Shown: piece by piece, positions 2,621 through 36,567 of the stretch
Numbering within the stretch: position 1 is the first letter of the stretch
How the letters are laid out: the number at the start of each line of letters is the position of its first letter
Source of the DNA: a virus
Lineage: Duplodnaviria; Heunggongvirae; Uroviricota; Caudoviricetes
Strand: one strand, 5' to 3'
Length of the DNA: 37,702 bases
IMG/VR virus record: IMGVR_UViG_2681813232_000007
Program-made: the position numbers and the translations under genes
The notes under the pieces: model-generated
The model's input: the letters and a program-made list of their open reading frames with translations, nothing else
Told to the model about the DNA's origin: nothing
The model's database searches: none

Positions 2621-2732
2621 AACTGAAGTTGCCCTGAAAATGAAATTTTTTTGCACAACCGCAGAACTTTTCCGCAGGGCATCAGTCTTAATTAGTGCCA
2701 CTGCTTTTCTTTGATGTCCCCATTTTGTGGAG

Positions 2733-2775
2733 CCCATCAACCCCGCCATTTCGGTTCAAGGTTGATGGGTTTTTT
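2733..2775 (+). terminator. intrinsic terminator-like hairpin (probably ybjL terminator, near prophage right junction)
   Basis: cccatcaacc (2733-2742) pairs with ggttgatggg (2760-2769), followed by TTTTTT (2770-2775). Confidence 0.45.
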
Positions 2776-2855
2776 GTTGCCTGAAATTTAAGCTGTTTAA
2801 AATCATGATGTTAGAAACACTGTTTTTTAACGATGGCGACAAAATGGCGGCAGCG

Positions 2856-3074
2856 TCAAAGAGAGAGCGCCACCTGTCCTGATTTCATTGGATGTGGCTG
2901 AACCGGATTTGACTCTTTTGGCGTTGCAATCGAACGAACAAAAGTTTCATGGGTAACAAAAGTATGGCTGCAGTTAATGTTCTGGCACTGGTTGTAACGC
3001 TCTTTGGTCAATGAAGATACCTGAAAACTGCTGCGAGTATGGGCGGCACTTCCACACAGTGGGCAAATCATCAT
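2856..3074 (-). CDS. ogr: Ogr-type zinc-finger late-gene transcription activator
   Basis: MMICPLCGSAAHTRSS...YNQCQNINCSHTF: C4 zinc finger like P2 Ogr; start moved to the internal ATG at 3074 because GGGGAG Shine-Dalgarno lies ~9 nt upstream; the ORF-track start at 3107 is an N-terminal extension. Confidence 0.85.
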   Translation of the reverse strand: MMICPLCGSAAHTRSSFQVSSLTKERYNQCQNINCSHTFVTHETFVRSIATPKESNPVQPHPMKSGQVALSL

Positions 3075-10144: not shown

Positions 10145-10711
10145 TCAGGGGGATTCATTGCTCTTATTTGCCGGAAATTTTCTATAAATGGTAGAAACGC
10201 CTACATCAAAAATCAGTGCAATACGCTGTCTTGATTCTCCGGCCTCGAGTAAACGCCCAATCTGTGCCCACTGTTCGGTGGTCAACTTAGGACGGCGTCC
10301 ACCTACTCTGCCTTTGGCACGAGCTGCAGCCAGCCCTGCCATGGTATGTTCAACTATCAGTTCGCGTTCCATTTCAGCCAGGGCCCCCATGACATGAAAA
10401 AAGAAACGGCCCATTGGGGTGCTGGTATCAATACTGTCAGTCAGGCTTCGGAAATTCACGCCACGCTGACGCAACTCTTCTATCAGCGTAACAAGATGCC
10501 GCATACTGCGCCCCAACCTGTCCAGCTTCCAGACAACCAGAGTGTCTCCTGCCGATAGTGTCCTGAGCAGCTTTTTCAGCCCCGGTCTGTCGGACTTGGT
10601 GCCACTGATTTTATCCTCAAAAATCCGCTCACATCCCGCACAGTTCAGTGCATTGCGTTGCAAATCGGTGTTCTGGTCATTTGTTGACACGCGTACATAG
10701 CCAATAAGCAT
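10145..10711 (-). CDS. serine recombinase, DNA invertase (Gin/Pin/Cin/Hin family)
   Basis: MLIGYVRVSTNDQNTDLQRNAL... with catalytic Ser in the YVRVSTxDQ motif and C-terminal HTH (GVSTIYRKF); near-identical by recall to Mu Gin over the N-terminus; ORF-track N-terminal extension to 11026 rejected. Confidence 0.9.
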   Translation of the reverse strand: MLIGYVRVSTNDQNTDLQRNALNCAGCERIFEDKISGTKSDRPGLKKLLRTLSAGDTLVVWKLDRLGRSMRHLVTLIEELRQRGVNFRSLTDSIDTSTPMGRFFFHVMGALAEMERELIVEHTMAGLAAARAKGRVGGRRPKLTTEQWAQIGRLLEAGESRQRIALIFDVGVSTIYRKFPANKSNESP

Positions 10712-10738
10712 GATCATCCCCCTGAATAAAAACCGGAG

Positions 10739-11215
10739 ATGATGCCAGTTAGCCGTTATCTCTGCATTTTCATAAACGTTCAATTGGGAGAAGCGGCAAA
10801 ACGGGATGTCGGAACCGGTAATAATCAACTCCCGGACATGTCCGCATTTGGTATGTCGCGAAACGGACAAACTGCCTGGGATATTCTCCCAAATGGTATG
10901 ATTCGACAGGCTGGCACTGTGACACTGACACCAGTTGGTAACTTCAACGCGCAGGTGCTTGGTGGGGTGACGTACTACACCCATTACTACAGGGTTAATT
11001 TCCCCAGACAATTCCCAAATGCACAAATAGCAACGCTGGCAACACTAGCGAGTTACAGCTATTCGACCCAGGCAACAATGGCCGGAAAATCACTGGCAAC
11101 GCATCGCGATACTGATTCTGGCACTGACGTATCAAGAACGCGATTCACTGTGGCGTATACGACACCCAATCTCGGCGAAACACCGACACTGCATTTTGAA
11201 GCAATAGGATACTAA
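10739..11215 (+). CDS. alternative tail-fibre C-terminal variable segment (Sv'-like, promoterless until inversion)
   Basis: opposite orientation to H, homologous to the H variable-region start, ends in ...EAIGY like H ends ...IALGY; the 5' end of this ORF upstream of the crossover is probably not translated in this orientation. Confidence 0.6.
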   Translation: MMPVSRYLCIFINVQLGEAAKRDVGTGNNQLPDMSAFGMSRNGQTAWDILPNGMIRQAGTVTLTPVGNFNAQVLGGVTYYTHYYRVNFPRQFPNAQIATLATLASYSYSTQATMAGKSLATHRDTDSGTDVSRTRFTVAYTTPNLGETPTLHFEAIGY

Positions 11216-11217
11216 AT

Positions 11218-11451
11218 ATGGAGAATATCTATTTCAGCCCAACGACCGTTGGTTTTTATGTTTCTGAACAAGAGCGACCTGATGATGCGGTTGAAGTCTC
11301 GCCAGAGGTGGAGGCATTTTTGAGGGAGTGTGTTATCTGGGGAGCGGATACATTTAACGTAGAGCGAGATGCAGCAACGGTGACATATCCAACAGAACTG
11401 CTTGAATATGTCACCACCTACAACGCCCCCGTTAAATATCCTGCGGATTGA
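11218..11451 (+). CDS. tail-fibre assembly protein fragment (U'-like, apparently truncated)
   Basis: 77-aa ORF with a Tfa-like N-terminus (MENIYFSPTTVGFYVSE), lacking the conserved C-terminal Tfa region; convergent with and overlapping the 3' end of the other Tfa gene. Confidence 0.45.
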   Translation: MENIYFSPTTVGFYVSEQERPDDAVEVSPEVEAFLRECVIWGADTFNVERDAATVTYPTELLEYVTTYNAPVKYPAD

Positions 11452-11842
11452 CAGGCCATACGGGTTTTGCTGTATCAACGCGCATCAGCAAGACCCGGTA
11501 TTTTTTCCATTCAGATAACGCGGCGGTTTCTTCTGCCGTCGCGATTTCCGCATCAAAAGCATCCTGTCTCCAGGCTATTTCCTTATCAGCCATAGAACGC
11601 AATACCGTTCTTTTCTGTTCAGCCTGAATAATCTGTTGTTCAGCGGAGAGTGGCGGGATATCAATCCACGCAGGATTACCATTTTTATCAGCCCCCAGCG
11701 TTTTGCCTTGTGGCGCTACGCCTGTGTAAATTGCCATTGTTTCATCATCAACATCAACGCCATTTTCAGGCCATGAACCGGCGCTGATATATACCTCTTT
11801 TAGTGCTTTCGGATAGAAAGAGCCTTTATAAAATTTATTCAT
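11432..11842 (-). CDS. G: tail-fibre assembly chaperone (gpG/U-like)
   Basis: start set to MNKFYKGSFY (ATG at 11842, GGGG Shine-Dalgarno upstream) immediately after the H stop; C-terminal Tfa-like motif SEWKKYRVLLMRVDTAKPVWPVNP. Confidence 0.8.
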   Translation of the reverse strand: MNKFYKGSFYPKALKEVYISAGSWPENGVDVDDETMAIYTGVAPQGKTLGADKNGNPAWIDIPPLSAEQQIIQAEQKRTVLRSMADKEIAWRQDAFDAEIATAEETAALSEWKKYRVLLMRVDTAKPVWPVNPQDI

Positions 11843-14865: not shown

Positions 14866-15211
14866 TCTCTGCTCCTGTTGATACGGAAAGGGACACAGGC
14901 ACACCGTTATTCCGCCGCCCGGTCAGCTCCACCACCATTGAACCGTCAAAATTGCTGTTAATAGTGATGGAATCCAGCGTCAGCCGTGGCTCCCAGCGAC
15001 TCAGTGCCACATACACAGCCGACATGACCTGCAGGCGTAACGCCGGATTTTGTGGCTGGTCTATCAGTGCCGACAGCAGGGAACCATATTCCCGACGGGC
15101 AATGCGGCTACCCTGCGGCGTCAGCAAAATGTCCCGCACCGACTGGCGCAGATGGTCAATATCAGTAATGGCTTTACCGCTGGTATTGTTCATCCCGCTA
15201 TAAAGCGTCAT
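14852..15211 (-). CDS. W: baseplate wedge protein W
   Basis: 119 aa, size and position match P2 gpW. Confidence 0.85.
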   Translation of the reverse strand: MTLYSGMNNTSGKAITDIDHLRQSVRDILLTPQGSRIARREYGSLLSALIDQPQNPALRLQVMSAVYVALSRWEPRLTLDSITINSNFDGSMVVELTGRRNNGVPVSLSVSTGAENGSD

Positions 15212-15786
15212 ACCGGGCCTCCGGTTGTGTCGCCGCCTTTCAGGACGCCAGTATGCTGATGTGCATCAACCACAATTCCGTTAGAACTCATTGCACCGCC
15301 GCCCTGGGTAACACCACCATTGATCACTACTTCGCTGTTAATGCGTGTGCGGTCAGCCTCCAGTACAAACTCACTGGTTTTCAGGGTGATGTTGTCGGCA
15401 GCTTCAATGACCATGGATTTGATTCCCCTGACATACCAGCGCCCGGTAGCGGGTTCGTATTCAAACCAGCCACCGTCAGGATGTTCTGTCACACAGGCGT
15501 CCACCGACGCCGACGGTGGTGCGAACTGATTCGAATATACAGCGGGCAGCGCAAAGGCGGTTTCCAGATTGCCGCCCAGACTCAGCAGCACCACCTGCTC
15601 ACCTTCCGATGGTCGCCACCATGTGCGGGCATTACCCGCGCGCAGCGTCAGCCAGTTAATCCAGTTGGTTTCAAGGTCGCCCGTTTTCACCCGACAAAGC
15701 CAGTGTTCCCGGTCCACTTCGGTGACTACACCAGTGCGGATCAGGTTGGTGATAAGGCGCATGATTTCGGTTAATTGTGCGTTCAT
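15208..15786 (-). CDS. V: baseplate spike/hub protein V
   Basis: 192 aa, N-terminus and overall sequence resemble P2 gpV by recall. Confidence 0.85.
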   Translation of the reverse strand: MNAQLTEIMRLITNLIRTGVVTEVDREHWLCRVKTGDLETNWINWLTLRAGNARTWWRPSEGEQVVLLSLGGNLETAFALPAVYSNQFAPPSASVDACVTEHPDGGWFEYEPATGRWYVRGIKSMVIEAADNITLKTSEFVLEADRTRINSEVVINGGVTQGGGAMSSNGIVVDAHQHTGVLKGGDTTGGPV

Positions 15787-15832
15787 AATTTAATCATGCC
15801 GAGATAAGATTGATAAAAAAACTCTTTAGTTT

Positions 15833-15850
15833 TGTGCCAGTTATGATACA
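15833..15850. promoter_or_regulatory. candidate Ogr-binding site (TGT-N12-ACA) of late promoter PV
   Basis: TGTgccagttatgatACA in the 100-bp gap between V and the divergent cargo operon, centred ~55 nt from the V start codon. Confidence 0.5.
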
Positions 15851-15886
15851 AAGTGCATTTACTCATGGACTAAATAAAGGATTCCT

Positions 15887-17146
15887 ATGTTTAGATTATC
15901 TAGTGTCAAGATTGAAGGTTTTTGGGGAAGACTAAATGCATCATGTTCATTTAATGAAGATGTAAATATTATTATTGGTCGAAATGGGACCGGTAAAACA
16001 ACCTTTATGAATATTCTTCACTCAGTTCTGGCATTAGAACTCGAATCACTAAATGAGAATAGTTTTGATAATGTAACAATAAAAATAAAAGAAGGAAGCA
16101 AAACTAAAACAATAAAAGTTGTGAGTAAATTTGACATAACTAAAGCTTTGCCTACGTTTGAATATACAATTTCTAGAAAGAAATATATTATCAGATCCTT
16201 TGAAGATCGTAGACTACCTATATATATGAGGAGAAAATATCAGGAAGACGTTGAAAAACTTAAGTTAGAGTTAGATAAATTAGTTGCTTTATCTTCTCTA
16301 TCAGTTTACCGACTTAGAAGCGGTGAAGATTTTGAAATCAGAGACAAATATGGCTCAAAATTAATCAACCCTGTTGATTACCGATTAGAACAATTATTGC
16401 AGAACCTAACAAAATATCAACTTTATTTATCACAAAGAGCTCGTGATGTTTCTGCAATATTACAGAAAGAGGTTCTTGCTTCTATTCTTTATAGTAAAGA
16501 AGATGGTATCGATGACACATTTAACTTTTCTTTTGATAAAGAAAAAGAACGTAGAAATTTAATAGCTGCATATTCTCAGCTTGGAGCTTTTGATAGTGAT
16601 GTCAGAAAGAAGATTAACTTTCACGTTGAATCTATTGCCAAAACATTTGAAGAATTACGACTTGCAGAAAAAAATAACAGAAATATTTTAAATGTAGATT
16701 ACAGATCATTTGAGGCATTACGAAAGACGCAAAGAATTATAAAGATGTCTTTAAAATCCGAGGAGAAAATAAAAAACATATTTCTTCCTATAAATCTATT
16801 TTTAGAAACATTACATGAGTTCATAACCGATAAAAAATTTAATTTTATCTCCGGTGAGCTAGTAATAGAAAACGAGCATGGGCCGATTAGCCATAGTAAT
16901 TTATCGTCTGGTGAAAAACAGCTATTAATTCTTTTTATTGAAACTTTGCTACAGCAAAACAAACCTTTCATCTATCTTACTGATGAACCAGAATTATCGC
17001 TACATATTGCATGGCAACGAAAAATAATACCTGCAATCAAACAACTTAATCCTAATGCGCAAATTATCGCCGCTACGCATTCACCAGAAGTGGCTTCTAA
17101 ATATCGAAATGCAATCTTTGATATGGAGAAATTGGTTCATGGATGA
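15887..17146 (+). CDS. ABC-type ATPase, candidate anti-phage protein (AriA/AbiLi-like)
   Basis: 419 aa; Walker A GRNGTGKTT (residues 31-39), signature-like LSSGEKQ, Walker B-like FIYLTDEPELSLH; AAGGA Shine-Dalgarno upstream; strongly AT-rich compared with flanking phage genes. Confidence 0.7.
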   Translation: MFRLSSVKIEGFWGRLNASCSFNEDVNIIIGRNGTGKTTFMNILHSVLALELESLNENSFDNVTIKIKEGSKTKTIKVVSKFDITKALPTFEYTISRKKYIIRSFEDRRLPIYMRRKYQEDVEKLKLELDKLVALSSLSVYRLRSGEDFEIRDKYGSKLINPVDYRLEQLLQNLTKYQLYLSQRARDVSAILQKEVLASILYSKEDGIDDTFNFSFDKEKERRNLIAAYSQLGAFDSDVRKKINFHVESIAKTFEELRLAEKNNRNILNVDYRSFEALRKTQRIIKMSLKSEEKIKNIFLPINLFLETLHEFITDKKFNFISGELVIENEHGPISHSNLSSGEKQLLILFIETLLQQNKPFIYLTDEPELSLHIAWQRKIIPAIKQLNPNAQIIAATHSPEVASKYRNAIFDMEKLVHG

Positions 17147-17990
17147 TTTCCATTATTCTGCCGAAGCAGAAAATGTAATGAATTTATTTTACCAAGCTGA
17201 AGCCATGGTTTATGTTGAAGGCCCAGATGATATTTGCTTTTGGGAAATCATCTTTAATAAAGCTAGTTCATTAAAGGTTGAAATCAAAGATGTTGGCGGC
17301 TGTGAAGAATTAAAAAAATATATTGATAGAGTTACTGATGAAGATCTTCAAATTATAATTGCATGTGATGCAGACTTCACTACATTTGAAAATGAGGAAA
17401 ACGCTGATAGTCGCATTGTAAAAACTTATGGGCACTCCATCGAAAACACGTTTATTGACAAAACAGGCATATATAAGGCAATAAAAACTCTAGGAAAATT
17501 ACCTCAAAAGATAATGAACGATGTCAACGTCGATTCTTGGACAGAAGACTTTTATACCAAAATGGAACCCCTAATAAAACTTGATATATACAATCATATT
17601 TATAGAAAAGGCATTTCAGTTATTGGTGACAGTGCAGATCGTTTCATGAAATCTAGAAAATCAAATGAAATTTGCGAGCAAAAAATCACGAGTTACAAAA
17701 ACACCATCATTGAAAAATTAGGTGTGGAACCAGATAACATCGATTCATCTTTCAAATCAAAATCGATAGAATACAGAAAGTGGCTTAGAGGTCATTTTCT
17801 TTTTTCTGCAGTACATAGGTACATTAGCACAACTGCAGAAAAAAATGGAAAAAAAGTATCCTTATCATATGAATCATTATATTCCAATTTAATGAATACA
17901 TTTGAATCCAATTTTACCAATACTCATATTGAGTTTAATCATTACCACGAAAAAATTAAAGCCATAAATATGCCACACGAAATGAAATAA
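17139..17990 (+). CDS. DUF4435/TOPRIM-like putative nuclease, candidate anti-phage effector (AriB/AbiLii-like)
   Basis: start set at MDDFHY (ATG at 17139) overlapping the upstream stop as ATGGATGA; conserved acidic motifs YVEGPDD and IIACDADF consistent with a TOPRIM Glu plus DxD; AT-rich. Confidence 0.65.
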   Translation: MDDFHYSAEAENVMNLFYQAEAMVYVEGPDDICFWEIIFNKASSLKVEIKDVGGCEELKKYIDRVTDEDLQIIIACDADFTTFENEENADSRIVKTYGHSIENTFIDKTGIYKAIKTLGKLPQKIMNDVNVDSWTEDFYTKMEPLIKLDIYNHIYRKGISVIGDSADRFMKSRKSNEICEQKITSYKNTIIEKLGVEPDNIDSSFKSKSIEYRKWLRGHFLFSAVHRYISTTAEKNGKKVSLSYESLYSNLMNTFESNFTNTHIEFNHYHEKIKAINMPHEMK

Positions 17991-18015
17991 GAAAAAATAC
18001 AGATGTATTTTTATA

Positions 18016-18462
18016 TTATGTAGATAACCATTCAAATAGGGTATCCTTGATTTGATAATATTCTTTATCGTGGATACCCAATAGCTTACGCTCTGCGTAA
18101 CGGACCTCAGGTCCTTTGCGACTGACGCGATCACGCAGGCCGTAGTGATGAACGCGGGCAATGCGCTGCACCTTGCCTTCAAACTGCACGCTGGCAGAAT
18201 CGGCGCTGGCGGCAGTTTTCAGGTATTTTGTGGTGCGCAGCTTCGCAAACATCTGACGTTTAATGCGGCCTTTTTTACTGCGTGCTGTTACCCGTCGCGG
18301 TTCATAGCTGCTGCCGTCAGGGTTGCGCTGCATCCTGATATTCTGCTGCTGTGTCCGGCGAAGTTCCTGCGCCAGTTGGCGCATCATACGGCTTCTTGCG
18401 GCTGGCTCCAGATTCGCCAGCAAGGCACTCAGCCAGTCGTCCACCTTCTGCAATTCAGCCAC
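18016..18462 (-). CDS. S: tail completion protein S
   Basis: 148 aa, resembles P2 gpS by recall (DSWLSALLANLEPAAR..., FAKLRT.YLK, VQFEGKVQRIARVH.YGLRDRV.RKGP). Confidence 0.85.
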   Translation of the reverse strand: MAELQKVDDWLSALLANLEPAARSRMMRQLAQELRRTQQQNIRMQRNPDGSSYEPRRVTARSKKGRIKRQMFAKLRTTKYLKTAASADSASVQFEGKVQRIARVHHYGLRDRVSRKGPEVRYAERKLLGIHDKEYYQIKDTLFEWLST

Positions 18463-26814: not shown

Positions 26815-27969
26815 TCAGCTTATTTGACCTAATAATTCTTCCGCATATTTTTTATCACTATCCATCCGTTGCTGAACAGCATCCCTAAGATGCTCTTTCA
26901 ACTTATCAGGATAATTTTTACATGCATCAATCAATTTTGTTCGTAAAAGCTTAGCACCATTTACAATGGTGGCATAAGCTAAAGCATCAGCTAACTCCTT
27001 AACTTTCACATCATCAGTAATGATAGAAGGGATTGAAAAAACGTAATATTTCGCAACATAATTTTGCGTATACCAACTATCATATAACAATCCAATTAAA
27101 GCATCACCAAGATCACCTCTTCTTTTAAATTTGCTACCAAATGTATTACCCCATGTTCCTATAGCTCCTTTGGTCGCATCAGAATAGAAATCCAAATATC
27201 CTTTTTTGCACTCTTCGATGATTATATTTTCCATTCTAATTAAAACATCATCAGGAAGATTTCTCCATGCGCTCGGCTTAATTATTCTAAATACATTAGC
27301 AAACTCAACATTATTGCTAGCCTTGCGTAACTCATCACCTAGCAACCGCATTGCGGCTTTTTCTTCCTCTCCTGAAAAGCGTTGGTTTATTGCTTTGAAT
27401 ATAGAATCAATTTCCTTGGTTGGCCTTTCATTAAAGCGAGAAATTAAACTTTGGAAAAAATCTAGTAGTTTTTTTTCTGGAATTTGTGATATTAAAGCTT
27501 CTGCATAATCAGAATTATTTACAAAGTGAACCTCATAAATTCTTTCAAGAATTGCTGTGTAATCGAACTCAGCAACATCTCTTTTTAAATACTTAATAAA
27601 AGTATCCAACATGATCAATATTCTCATGCAGGAATCTTCTGTATCAGGGAAATTGTCATGTGTCCTTGGATTTCTTATACACTGATAGTAGCCTCTTAAT
27701 AGTGCTTCAAATCCGCGCTGTTCGTCCTGCTCTGATACAGATTGAAGACTATTAATTTGGATTCTAGGTGATTGTCCACCCAAAACAGTACCAACAAGCT
27801 GAGCCCCATCCCCTTCACATTGCCCTTTTTCACGCAGCAAAGTTGTTAGATATTTGGTTCCTGCAAGTATTGCATCCGAAAATTGGTTGTTTTCCAGCCT
27901 ATTACCAATCGCTTCAACTAATTCCGCATCGAAATTATTTGTATTAAAGTTATTTTTTACAAACATCAC
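26815..27969 (-). CDS. orphan cargo protein with N-terminal HEPN-like RNxxxH motif, candidate abortive-infection RNase
   Basis: 384 aa, AT-rich; motif IRNPRTH (R99-H104; codons 27658-27675); GGGGAG Shine-Dalgarno upstream of the ATG; sits between the portal gene and the cos-like site. Confidence 0.6.
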   Translation of the reverse strand: MMFVKNNFNTNNFDAELVEAIGNRLENNQFSDAILAGTKYLTTLLREKGQCEGDGAQLVGTVLGGQSPRIQINSLQSVSEQDEQRGFEALLRGYYQCIRNPRTHDNFPDTEDSCMRILIMLDTFIKYLKRDVAEFDYTAILERIYEVHFVNNSDYAEALISQIPEKKLLDFFQSLISRFNERPTKEIDSIFKAINQRFSGEEEKAAMRLLGDELRKASNNVEFANVFRIIKPSAWRNLPDDVLIRMENIIIEECKKGYLDFYSDATKGAIGTWGNTFGSKFKRRGDLGDALIGLLYDSWYTQNYVAKYYVFSIPSIITDDVKVKELADALAYATIVNGAKLLRTKLIDACKNYPDKLKEHLRDAVQQRMDSDKKYAEELLGQIS

Positions 27970-34890: not shown

Positions 34891-36567
34891 ATGAATTCAT
34901 TTGCCATCGTTATACTCTTATTAGCATTTCTCGCCCCTGTTCTAGCTGTAATATTATTTAAACAAAGTAAAAAACACAAAGCGGCTATAGATAACCTGAC
35001 AGCTAACAACATAGCCCTTTCTAACCAACTGATTGAAAATCAAGAAAAACTAGCACAGACCGTACGAGAATTATCAGAGCTTGAAGGGCGAGCAGCACCA
35101 TTGTGGCAATACGAAGAATTGCACAGCGCAGTAATGGATGCAGAGAATAAGATAAAAAATGCGGACTCAATAGCCAAGCAAAAAATAGATGAAGCCCAAA
35201 TTAAGGCGGCTAAAACAGTAAACGAAGCAAATTATCAAGCTCAGATGACAATAAGCAACGCTAATAGCGAAGCTATAGCAATCACCAAAGACGCTCGCGA
35301 TGCACGCCTGAAAGCCAAAGAACGTCTTGATAATGCTAATAATAAAGCAAATGAGCTAATCTCAAATGCTAATGACAATGCAGTAAAAATTATTTCTGAT
35401 GCAGAAGAAAGAGCAAAGGAGATTGCTGGTTCAGCATATGAAGCTAAAGAGTTTGCAGAAAAATATGAAGCAGTTGCAAAATCAATGAAAAATAAAATTG
35501 AAGGTTATGGTGATGAATGGATCATCCCTAACCGTAGTGTACTTGATGAGCTGGCAGAAAATTATGAATTTACAGATGCAGGCAAGGAATTACAAAAAGC
35601 CAGAGAGTTAACCAAATCATTAATAAAAACTAATAAAGCTGCTTCGTGTGATTATGTTGAGCAAAACAGGCGTAATACTGCCATAAACTTTGTTTTGGAT
35701 GCCTTCAATGGAAGAGTTGACAGTATTTTATCAAAAGTCAAACACAACAATTTTGGAAAACTTTCCCAAGAAATAAAAGATGCATTTCAACTAGTAAATT
35801 ACAATGGCTCTGCCTTTAGGTCCGCAAAAATAAGTGACATCTATCTTCAGGCAAGACTCAACGAGCTAAAATGGGGTGTAGCAGTTAATGAAATTATGCT
35901 CGAAGAAAAAGAAGAGCAAAGAAGGATTAAAGAACAGCTTCGTGAAGAGGAAAGAGCTCGTAGAGAATATGAAAAAGCGATAAAAGAAGCTGAAAAAGAA
36001 GAAAAAGCTATTCAGCAAGCTATAAATAAAGCAACGAAAGAACTTATGCTTGCAAATGAAGAACAACGCTTAGCTTTAGAGCAAAAAATAGCTGAACTAC
36101 AGTTAAAATATGAAGAAGCTGAAGCTAAAAATCAACGAGCTATTTCTATGGCTCAACAAACCAGATCAGGCCACGTCTATATCATTAGTAATATTGGTTC
36201 ATTTGGCGAAGATGTATATAAAATTGGAATGACACGCCGCCTTGAACCACTTGATCGTGTTCGTGAACTCGGAGATGCTAGTGTTCCTTTTTCGTTCGAT
36301 GTTCATGCGATGATTTATAGTGATGATGCACCATCATTAGAAAACCATCTGCATAAAGTTTTCAACGAAAAGCAGGTCAATAAAATTAACTCACGAAAAG
36401 AGTTTTTTAACGTAAATTTAAAAGAAATCAAATCAGTTATTGAAGACATGAACATCAACGCCCACTGGACAATGTTTGCAGAGGCGAAAGAATATAGAGA
36501 GTCTCTATCTATTGAGCAGGAGCGCAAAGCAGCCACTTCCGCCAACGATGAACTACATGTTGCTTAG
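34891..36567 (+). CDS. membrane-anchored coiled-coil protein with C-terminal GIY-YIG-like (T5orf172-type) domain; candidate anti-phage cargo
   Basis: 558 aa, AT-rich; N-terminal transmembrane helix (FAIVILLLAFLAPVLAVILF), long Lys/Glu/Ala-rich helical region, C-terminal GHVYIISN...YKIGMTRRLEPLDRVREL; inserted between cI and int. Confidence 0.65.
   Translation: MNSFAIVILLLAFLAPVLAVILFKQSKKHKAAIDNLTANNIALSNQLIENQEKLAQTVRELSELEGRAAPLWQYEELHSAVMDAENKIKNADSIAKQKIDEAQIKAAKTVNEANYQAQMTISNANSEAIAITKDARDARLKAKERLDNANNKANELISNANDNAVKIISDAEERAKEIAGSAYEAKEFAEKYEAVAKSMKNKIEGYGDEWIIPNRSVLDELAENYEFTDAGKELQKARELTKSLIKTNKAASCDYVEQNRRNTAINFVLDAFNGRVDSILSKVKHNNFGKLSQEIKDAFQLVNYNGSAFRSAKISDIYLQARLNELKWGVAVNEIMLEEKEEQRRIKEQLREEERARREYEKAIKEAEKEEKAIQQAINKATKELMLANEEQRLALEQKIAELQLKYEEAEAKNQRAISMAQQTRSGHVYIISNIGSFGEDVYKIGMTRRLEPLDRVRELGDASVPFSFDVHAMIYSDDAPSLENHLHKVFNEKQVNKINSRKEFFNVNLKEIKSVIEDMNINAHWTMFAEAKEYRESLSIEQERKAATSANDELHVA

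Follow-up and report, generated by a model that had tools for sequence, protein, structure and literature searches.

Background

PARIS systems are two-gene abortive-infection systems in which a gene for an ABC ATPase, ariA, is followed by one for a DUF4435/TOPRIM nuclease, ariB. Eleven PARIS clades have been published, the family has been placed as class 4 among the OLD-like systems, and its members presumably have signalling and effector parts in common while differing in the phage proteins that they sense. Both systems that have been tested, PARIS-2 of B185 and PARIS-1 of O42, provide defence. This study concerns a stretch of 37,702 nucleotides (nt) from the virus record IMGVR_UViG_2681813232_000007 of IMG/VR, hereafter the window, and in particular the AT-rich block at positions 15787-18015, which lies between the tail genes S and V of a P2/186-like prophage and is most likely a PARIS cassette belonging to neither of these two clades.

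The mechanism of PARIS is well worked out in B185, where AriB cleaves tRNA Lys, Thr and Asn, with growth arrest. The two-metal TOPRIM site of that protein consists of E26, D30, D88, E90 and E122 (PMC11464382); its residues K60 and K64 have been proposed to hold the anticodon loop and R28 the D-loop, and in the complex R28 and R31 form salt bridges with D401 and E404 of AriA. The pore residues of AriA have been reported to vary between PARIS clades, and co-evolution of ariA and ariB has been reported as well. For the purpose of detection, a PARIS locus has been defined as two adjacent genes, one scoring at least 32 bits against AAA_15 or at least 27 bits against AAA_21, the other at least 27 bits against DUF4435 (PMC9122126).

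The insertion slot is likewise classical. PMC6823313, citing Christie and Calendar, lists three classical moron regions in P2-like phages, one of which is the interval between S and V. In the P2 record it is occupied by the non-essential Orf30, which is also antisense to the late operons, while Cartapus carries gp14, a 176-residue open reading frame (ORF), R18C carries ORF16 (741 bp), and the junction of Klebsiella phage 4LV2017 is empty. Neither Orf30 nor the Cartapus ORF yielded a Pfam or PADLOC match, which gives no ground for regarding the slot as one for defence in general. Defence genes in the tail-region slots of P2 are already part of the literature, and a 2026 survey in Nucleic Acids Research mentions in its main text, without detail, defence hotspots 'within the tail genes' and 'downstream of GpL'. 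The analysis of Rousset 2022 (PMC9122126) was devoted to the gpA-gpQ hotspot only, where PARIS cassettes were recorded. An explicit account of PARIS at S-V is absent from the literature on P2-like phages as represented by Rousset 2022, the main text of the 2026 survey, and PMC13100340.

Results

An ATPase and a DUF4435/TOPRIM gene in the AT-rich block

The block at 15787-18015 most likely represents an abortive-infection cassette of the PARIS type, with the genes ariA and ariB, that a P2/186-like prophage carries as an accessory element between S and V; its function is assigned by homology. The domain pair, the catalytic motifs, the fold matches, the strict co-occurrence of the two genes with an 8-nt overlap and the recurrent residence between V and S are direct observations. 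The initial annotation had described an AT-rich insert on the opposite strand to S and V, and its coordinates proved exact: the block fills the gap between the start of gpV (15786, minus strand) and the stop of gpS (18016, minus strand). Its mean GC content is 0.309, against 0.515 for the remaining prophage, and every 300-nt window fully within it falls between 0.28 and 0.36, compared with 0.52-0.61 in the flanking tail genes on both sides.

Two ORFs are encoded on the plus strand, antisense to the late operons. The first (ORF1, ariA, 15887-17146) specifies a protein of 419 residues (48.7 kDa, isoelectric point 9.1) with the presumed role of sensor and scaffold, and the second (ORF2, ariB, 17139-17990) a presumed effector nuclease of 283 residues (33.0 kDa, isoelectric point 5.5). 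The ATPase and TOPRIM motifs quoted in the initial annotation, together with the overlap of the ORF1 stop with the ORF2 start, were all found as described. The overlap, ATGGATGA (17139-17146), contains the ariB ATG and the ariA stop, and through it ariB is predicted to be translationally coupled to ariA. Although a program-made ORF list offers an earlier ATG at 17055, the ORF2 start was set at 17139 because all 35 homologues begin at an MDDF-type N-terminus and the 8-nt overlap recurs in 31 of the 32 loci where it could be measured.

Profile searches confirmed the proposed combination of domains. ORF1 scored 82.3 bits against AAA_21, 64.6 against AAA_15 and 51.9 against SMC_N in Pfam, and ORF2 91.3 bits against DUF4435; the AAA_21, AAA_15 and DUF4435 scores are well above the Pfam cut-offs and, the genes being overlapping, place the pair within the published PARIS rule. 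The score of ORF2 against OLD-like_TOPRIM was 13.1 bits, below the cut-off of 23.2. In PADLOC, AriA was the top model for ORF1 (5.7e-40), followed by PtuA models at about 1e-23 (3e-23), and AriB models were the top ones for ORF2 (2.3e-24 and 1.5e-9), whose matches at E<=1 comprised AriB, AriAB and mad4 models only. In PHROGs, each ORF falls in a family of unknown function, and neither reached a family-level model of NCBIfam.

Motifs and fold of AriA

ORF1 has a Walker A motif (GRNGTGKTT, residues 31-39), an ABC signature (LSSGEKQ, 339-345), a Walker B motif (LTDEPE, 364-369) and an H-loop (ATHS, 396-399). Across 36 homologues, G31-T39 of Walker A (with K37), L339-Q345, D366-E367 of Walker B and H398 of the H-loop are invariant, and E367 aligns with E393 of B185 AriA, the site of the ATPase-dead mutant. 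A phmmer search matched ORF1 to the solved AriA chain 8ux9_B with an E-value of 6e-17, chiefly over the C-terminal ATPase lobe. In the AlphaFold2 model (predicted local distance difference test 80), the resemblance extends to the whole protein: the 15 best Foldseek matches in the Protein Data Bank (PDB) are all chains of AriA-containing entries, the top 14 of them with E-values of 8e-18 to 1e-14, template modelling (TM) scores of 0.56-0.65 and identities of 16-20%. The next-best folds, namely retron PtuA, Rad50 and SMC heads, follow at E-values of about 1e-11 or weaker and TM scores of about 0.3-0.45.

A basic loop of ORF1 (R108, R109, R114, R115 and K116) is aligned with the pore residue R116 of B185 AriA. 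This loop belongs to a stretch that is among the more variable ones in the family, which fits the published variation of pore residues between clades.

Motifs and fold of AriB

The TOPRIM motifs of ORF2 are YVEGPDD (residues 25-31) and ACDADF (75-80). Sequence search having failed, the link to AriB was made by fold comparison and hhalign; the sequence of B185 AriB was recovered via a Pseudoalteromonas homologue aligned to the PDB chain and then from Table S2A of Rousset. The closest solved structure to ORF2 is AriB, at 15-18% identity in structural alignments, the second and third closest are OLD-family TOPRIM nucleases, and GajA is a marginal Foldseek match (E 0.18). The alignment of the ORF2 family with B185 AriB by hhalign had an E-value of 6e-5 over 193 columns, albeit at a low probability of 65%, and paired E27, D31, D77, D79 and E102 with the five residues of the B185 two-metal site, in the order given above. 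All five are invariant in 36 family members. The same holds for G218 and H219, and nearly so for R217; these three residues align with R236-G237-H238 of B185, so that the RGH motif is kept.

As judged by their isoelectric points, AriA is a basic protein and AriB an acidic one. At the position of B185 E404, AriA has R378, and helix alpha-2 of AriB has D30 and E36; it might be speculated that these residues form a docking interface of reversed charge.

A third clade of PARIS

In BLASTP comparisons, AriB of the window matched that of PARIS-2 (B185) with an E-value of 2e-4 (26% identity over 117 residues) and that of PARIS-1 (O42) with one of 0.35, the value between PARIS-1 and PARIS-2 being 1.4. 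For AriA, the corresponding E-values were 9e-9, 7e-8 (N-terminal 89 residues only) and 6e-6. On these values the pair forms a third clade, no further from B185 or O42 than those are from each other. Given that B185 and O42 both defend and are equally distant, function is known to span such divergence, and this is the main reason to expect function here. The initial annotation had left open whether the system was canonical or divergent; it belongs to a divergent clade rather than to the B185 type, ORF2 being without a sequence match to solved AriB. The features that bring it into the family are the PARIS rule, the TOPRIM two-metal site, the ABC ATPase motifs, the folds of both whole proteins and the co-evolution of ariA and ariB.

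Distribution and evolution of the gene pair

The ORF2 family comprises 51 clusters at 90% identity, all of 266-285 residues but for one fragment, and ORF1 belongs to a much larger ATPase family. An ORF1 homologue directly precedes the ORF2 match in 56 of the 57 genome loci where that match covers at least about 200 of the 283 residues; these loci come from phyla that include Proteobacteria, Cyanobacteria, Bacteroidota, Planctomycetota and Deinococcota, along with one archaeal metagenome-assembled genome. In a set of 75 diverged loci the identities of AriA and AriB correlate (r 0.88), which, together with the kept overlap, matches the reported co-evolution of the two genes. AriA was the more conserved of the two in 72 of these loci (mean identity 51% vs 38%), which suggests that the effector AriB evolves faster than the sensor ATPase.

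Most of the diverged loci (62/75) are outside any V/S context and are spread over many phyla. In IMG/VR, the complete order V-[ariA-ariB]-S is present in 16 of 31 viral contigs, and in one more, which is truncated at its end, ariB adjoins S, bringing the total at this junction to 17. The V/S-located alleles in this database are associated with V proteins down to 63% identical, and their AriB identities go down to 43%. Between the contigs L106 and L107 and the contigs L090-L094, gpV is 96-97% identical, yet AriA is only 62% and AriB 44% identical; a near-identical V beside a distant ariAB allele suggests that recombination in the flanks has replaced one allele with another.

Within Escherichia coli, DNA searches detected any allele in 31 of 5426 complete genomes. 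The window allele is present, intact and at 99.8-100% identity, in 18 genomes originating from humans, cattle, dogs and the environment; one genome has an allele at 72% and eleven have one at about 65%. All four E. coli contexts inspected (EC11 for the window allele, GDSC2227PM, S1 and S56) adjoin gene V. In GDSC2227PM the prophage is mostly deleted between ariB and the immunity region, and an intact ariAB stands beside a portal fragment, cI and a DUF4041 gene, so that the putative defence genes have outlasted the phage.

Among 50,697 phage records, the only match to the cassette clade is ON470620 (Escherichia phage vB_EcoM-813R9), which holds the same region in a truncated prophage with host flanks. 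ON470620.1, labelled 'partial genome', has E. coli genes on both sides (artP, ybjP ... rcdA, mdfA, deoR), and its tail module is cut within gpH beside ybjT; the record therefore reads as a defective prophage region and not as a virion genome.

Boundaries of the insert and the PV promoter

The window is identical, with 0 mismatches, to positions 3739102-3776803 of the E. coli EC11 chromosome (NZ_CP060938.1), and holds a complete P2/186-like prophage with short host DNA at the left, spanning from grxA to the phage integrase. The left flank of the cassette is gpV (15208-15786, minus strand), a 192-residue ORF to which ON470620 and NZ_CP060938 give the name baseplate assembly protein V and which is 96% identical to the V proteins of Cartapus and 4LV2017. 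On the right, the 148-residue ORF of gpS (18016-18462, minus strand) is annotated as tail completion protein GpS or virion morphogenesis protein. Both genes are phage backbone.

The interpretation of the block as a moron inserted between S and V was borne out, except that its first 65 nt belong to the phage. A TGT-N12-ACA dyad (TGT 15833-15835, ACA 15848-15850; extended form TTGT...ACAA, 15832-15851) has its centre at 15841.5, at a distance of 55.5 nt upstream from the A that opens the gpV start codon. In the P2 record, the activator binding site of pV is placed at 10239-10266 and the transcription start of the V operon at 10308, the initial base of V, so that the spacing there is likewise 55.5 nt; moreover, the dyad is kept in all eight aligned P2-like sequences, including that of 4LV2017, in which 68 nt separate S from V. 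From the P2 annotation and the presence of the dyad in a phage with an empty junction, 15787-15851 (minus strand) can be identified as the backbone late promoter PV with its Ogr/activator box rather than as foreign DNA, the inserted segment being about 15852-18015. Given the spacing of the Ogr box from the gpV ATG, the V transcript should have no leader, as is also annotated in P2. A TTGT-N12-ACAA element with TGrTACAA, common to five cassette alleles upstream of ORF1, might suggest an extended -10 or a cassette operator, a role which the P2 annotation and the empty-junction phages rule out.

Between the Ogr box and ORF1 there remain 35 nt (15852-15886, plus strand), which include a good Shine-Dalgarno sequence (AAGGA, 15877-15881) 5 nt before the ATG. 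Such a gap is too short for a full promoter, and any promoter of the cassette would consequently have to overlap the PV control region.

At the other end, a weak AU-rich hairpin (17993-18012) separates the convergent stops of ariB and gpS. Its folding energy is -4.1 to -5.1 kcal/mol, with a z-score of -3.6 for the minus and -1.8 for the plus strand. The hairpin may terminate transcription in both directions, the T-tract that follows gpS on the minus strand being the better one, and at the equivalent place the P2 record annotates the putative terminator of the O operon; as a plus-strand terminator of ariB it is unconvincing. No direct or inverted repeats flank the cassette, which thus bears no transposon or integron signature and no mark of an insertion mechanism. 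Likewise, no tRNA gene or other RNA family was found in or near it.

Other accessory genes of the prophage

The slot between cI and int, described by others as a hotspot, holds at 34891-36567 (plus strand) a gene for a 558-residue protein with DUF4041 and T5orf172/MUG113 domains. It matches the PADLOC model PD-Lambda-1 at 3e-120 and is a second candidate defence gene of the prophage. Next to the portal gene Q, in the old/tin (gpA-gpQ) hotspot, a gene at 26815-27966 (minus strand) encodes a protein of 383 residues whose N-terminal domain scores 82.5 bits against Hypoth_Ymh; its PADLOC matches, to PD-Lambda-3_B and a HEPN model of Aga, are weak.

In the slot on the Z/fun side, at about 10145-11842, the annotation places a gene of the recombinase family (invertase type) beside alternative tail-fibre and tail-fibre-assembly segments on opposite strands, an arrangement that looks like an invertible host-range switch. 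At the left of the window, the ogr end of the prophage (ogr itself at about 2856-3074) is some 80 nt away from the gene for the small RNA RybB (2700-2778, plus strand; Rfam 105 bits), whose position indicates that the prophage sits between rybB and rcdA.

Discussion

A proposed mechanism

By homology with B185 (PMC11464382, PMC9122126, PMC12409363), AriA of the window would assemble as a trimer of head-to-tail dimers holding AriB inactive. A protein of an infecting phage would bind to AriA (in B185, Ocr or another acidic protein, at the basic pore), upon which AriA would free AriB in an ATPase-dependent step. Free AriB would dimerise, and its two-metal TOPRIM site (E27, D31, D77, D79, E102) would cut the anticodon stem-loops of host tRNAs. 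Translation would halt and the infection would abort, protecting the lysogen population and hence the prophage. Both the trigger and the tRNA target of this clade probably differ from those of B185, since the docking and anticodon-loop residues of the latter are not conserved at the aligned positions.

Several results speak against assigning the pair to PARIS, or against its being active in this strain. Neither the single ORF2 sequence (phmmer) nor the profile of its 36-sequence family retrieved AriB in a search of all solved structures, and the probability of the hhalign alignment is low. At the aligned positions, the docking arginines R28 and R31 of B185 AriB are P29 and I32, and their partners D401 and E404 in AriA are A375 and R378, so that the salt-bridge residues are conserved on neither side; K60 and K64 correspond to E57 and Y61. 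Confidence in this part of the alignment is low. The lack of the R28/R31-D401/E404 pairs, however, concerns a feature of the B185 complex and not the definition of the PARIS family. With regard to expression, which the initial annotation described as typically occurring in the lysogen for morons at this position, no sigma-70 consensus match of at least 9/12 was found on the plus strand upstream of ORF1, and the candidates picked by eye are weak (TATGAT, 15842-15847; TTCATA-17-TAAGAT, 15782-15810). AT-rich foreign DNA is a likely target of H-NS in E. coli, and a block of 31% GC may be silenced by it. The validated O42 system was itself inactive from its native promoter and needed artificial induction. 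Finally, E. coli S56 has at the same site a related allele in which both genes are split by frameshifts, which indicates that the cassette is dispensable.

Alternative explanations

These same residues and the cramped promoter region leave some room for a functionally distinct PARIS, in which AriB would be retargeted, towards another set of tRNAs or another nucleic acid and with triggers not of the Ocr type, and the expression of ariAB would be wired to the late switch of the phage. Retargeting is suggested by the faster divergence of AriB than of AriA and by the lack of the residues with which B185 grips tRNA and docks, and coupling to the late switch by the fact that the sole room for a promoter overlaps the Ogr box of the divergent PV. 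If this were true, the binding of Ogr in late P2 development could switch the defence off or on, sparing the lytic cycle of the prophage itself. We regard this scenario as a rather improbable one.

It is unlikely, too, that the architecture is shared but the effector chemistry is not, with ORF2 acting as an OLD- or Gabija-like DNA nickase or nuclease, or cleaving some other RNA, and defence proceeding through the degradation of phage or host DNA. Such a reading gains from the OLD-family TOPRIM nucleases that follow AriB among the closest structures, OLD-family nucleases acting on DNA according to PMC12392090, and from the lack of conservation of K60, K64 and R28. The full-length match to the AriB fold and the kept RGH motif nonetheless disfavour a DNA cutter of the OLD type.

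A role other than defence against phages deserves little credence. The pair could serve as a prophage addiction or stabilisation module, as a weapon in the competition between P2 and P4-like satellites, or as a regulator of the cycle of its own phage; the cassette directly adjoins, and diverges from, the Ogr-activated PV promoter, it has stayed at this one site in P2-like phages with V proteins no more than 63-69% identical, and it has been retained in the degraded prophage of GDSC2227PM. In B185, however, deletion of either gene is non-toxic, which excludes a toxin-antitoxin arrangement, and PARIS carried on P4 spares or even benefits P2 (PMC9122126). Furthermore, as most homologous pairs are found away from V and S and in many phyla, their function cannot be specific to P2. 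Least credible of all is the idea of a cargo that is silent or in decay and at present functionless in the strain, an idea for which the AT-richness, the absence of a recognisable promoter, the frameshifted S56 relative and the rarity of DNA-detectable alleles in E. coli could be cited, but which sits poorly with two full-length ORFs retaining all catalytic residues and the coupling overlap, with the undisrupted, nearly identical copies in 18 genomes of varied origin and with deeply diverged same-site alleles whose ORFs are all intact.

Significance

With the PARIS cassette preferred as the explanation, a single phage of 33 kb would hold up to three candidate defences (PARIS, PD-Lambda-1 and the Hypoth_Ymh protein) at three slots, and the S-V slot, long associated with small genes lacking a known function, is seen time and again to harbour a recognisable defence system. 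As a third clade at equal distance, the pair would offer a useful comparison for mapping the surfaces with which AriA chooses its trigger and AriB its tRNA. Public records label the genes as 'AAA family ATPase', 'DUF4435 domain-containing protein' or 'hypothetical protein', and they could be re-annotated as ariA and ariB. Present defence-annotation tools would label the pair automatically, and the understanding of PARIS or of P2 is unchanged by the present findings.

Comparison with known systems

The closest described system is PARIS-2 of B185, carried by a P4-like satellite (8UX9, 8V45-8V49; Rousset 2022, Burman 2024, Deep 2024, Belukhina 2025). It has the same gene order, with the ABC ATPase preceding the DUF4435/TOPRIM gene, and is the closest solved structure for both proteins of the window. 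All ATPase motifs (with E367 in the place of E393), the five acidic TOPRIM residues, the RGH motif and a basic loop at the position of the trigger-binding pore are shared, as is carriage by a mobile element of the P2/P4 system. The two differ in sequence, with identities in structural alignments of 17-20% for AriA and 15-18% for AriB, and in size, AriA of the window being 45 residues shorter (419 vs 464) and AriB about 25 (283 vs 308). Their location differs as well, the B185 system occupying the cos-proximal hotspot of P4 and the present one the S-V slot of a P2-like phage.

PARIS-1 of O42, also on a P4-like satellite and active only if induced, has the same two-domain architecture and falls under the same detection rule. 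Its TOPRIM N-terminal region aligns with that of the window (hhalign E 9e-5, residues 25-125), with the E, DxD and IEN motifs kept, but it constitutes a separate clade and its AriB gives no significant BLASTP match. The PARIS cassettes of the gpA-gpQ (old/tin) hotspot (Rousset 2022, Table S5) resemble the present one in their P2-like host and in the combination of AAA_21/AAA_15/SMC_N/AAA_23 with DUF4435; they occupy another slot, which in the window holds the Hypoth_Ymh protein instead. The same slot, from the end of S to the PV activator box, and the same antisense orientation are found for P2 Orf30, Cartapus gp14 and R18C ORF16, which are unrelated proteins encoded by 0.5-0.8 kb, as opposed to the 2.1 kb of the cassette.

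Among the wider OLD-like systems, P2 Old (class 1 OLD) and GajA (class 2) likewise join an ABC ATPase to a TOPRIM nuclease for phage exclusion. In these, both domains reside in one polypeptide, whereas two ORFs are present here and OLD-like_TOPRIM remains below threshold; in Gabija, GajA works with the UvrD-like helicase GajB, while the neighbours here are gpV and gpS, with no helicase. The initial annotation had named AbiL together with PARIS, and only the latter part of the label was sustained, by PADLOC, the folds and the TOPRIM residues. PADLOC-DB 2.0 includes AbiL models, and none of them appeared among the matches of ORF2 at E<=1 or the top 25 matches of ORF1.

Two further systems also contain an ATPase. 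In Septu and retron PtuAB, PtuA ranks below AriA as a match for ORF1 (3e-23 vs 6e-40) and reaches 64.9 bits against an NCBIfam cut-off of 500; the partner there is the HNH protein PtuB, here it is a DUF4435 protein, and no Rfam retron RNA was found. MADS gave weaker PADLOC matches than AriA and AriB (mad3 5.5e-21, mad4 0.034) and an NCBIfam MAD3 score of 35.5 bits against a cut-off of 420; it is a multi-gene, methylation-associated system in which an ATPase and a TOPRIM-like protein form the mad3-mad4 module, whereas the pair described here stands between two tail genes with no methyltransferase or other mad genes adjacent to it.

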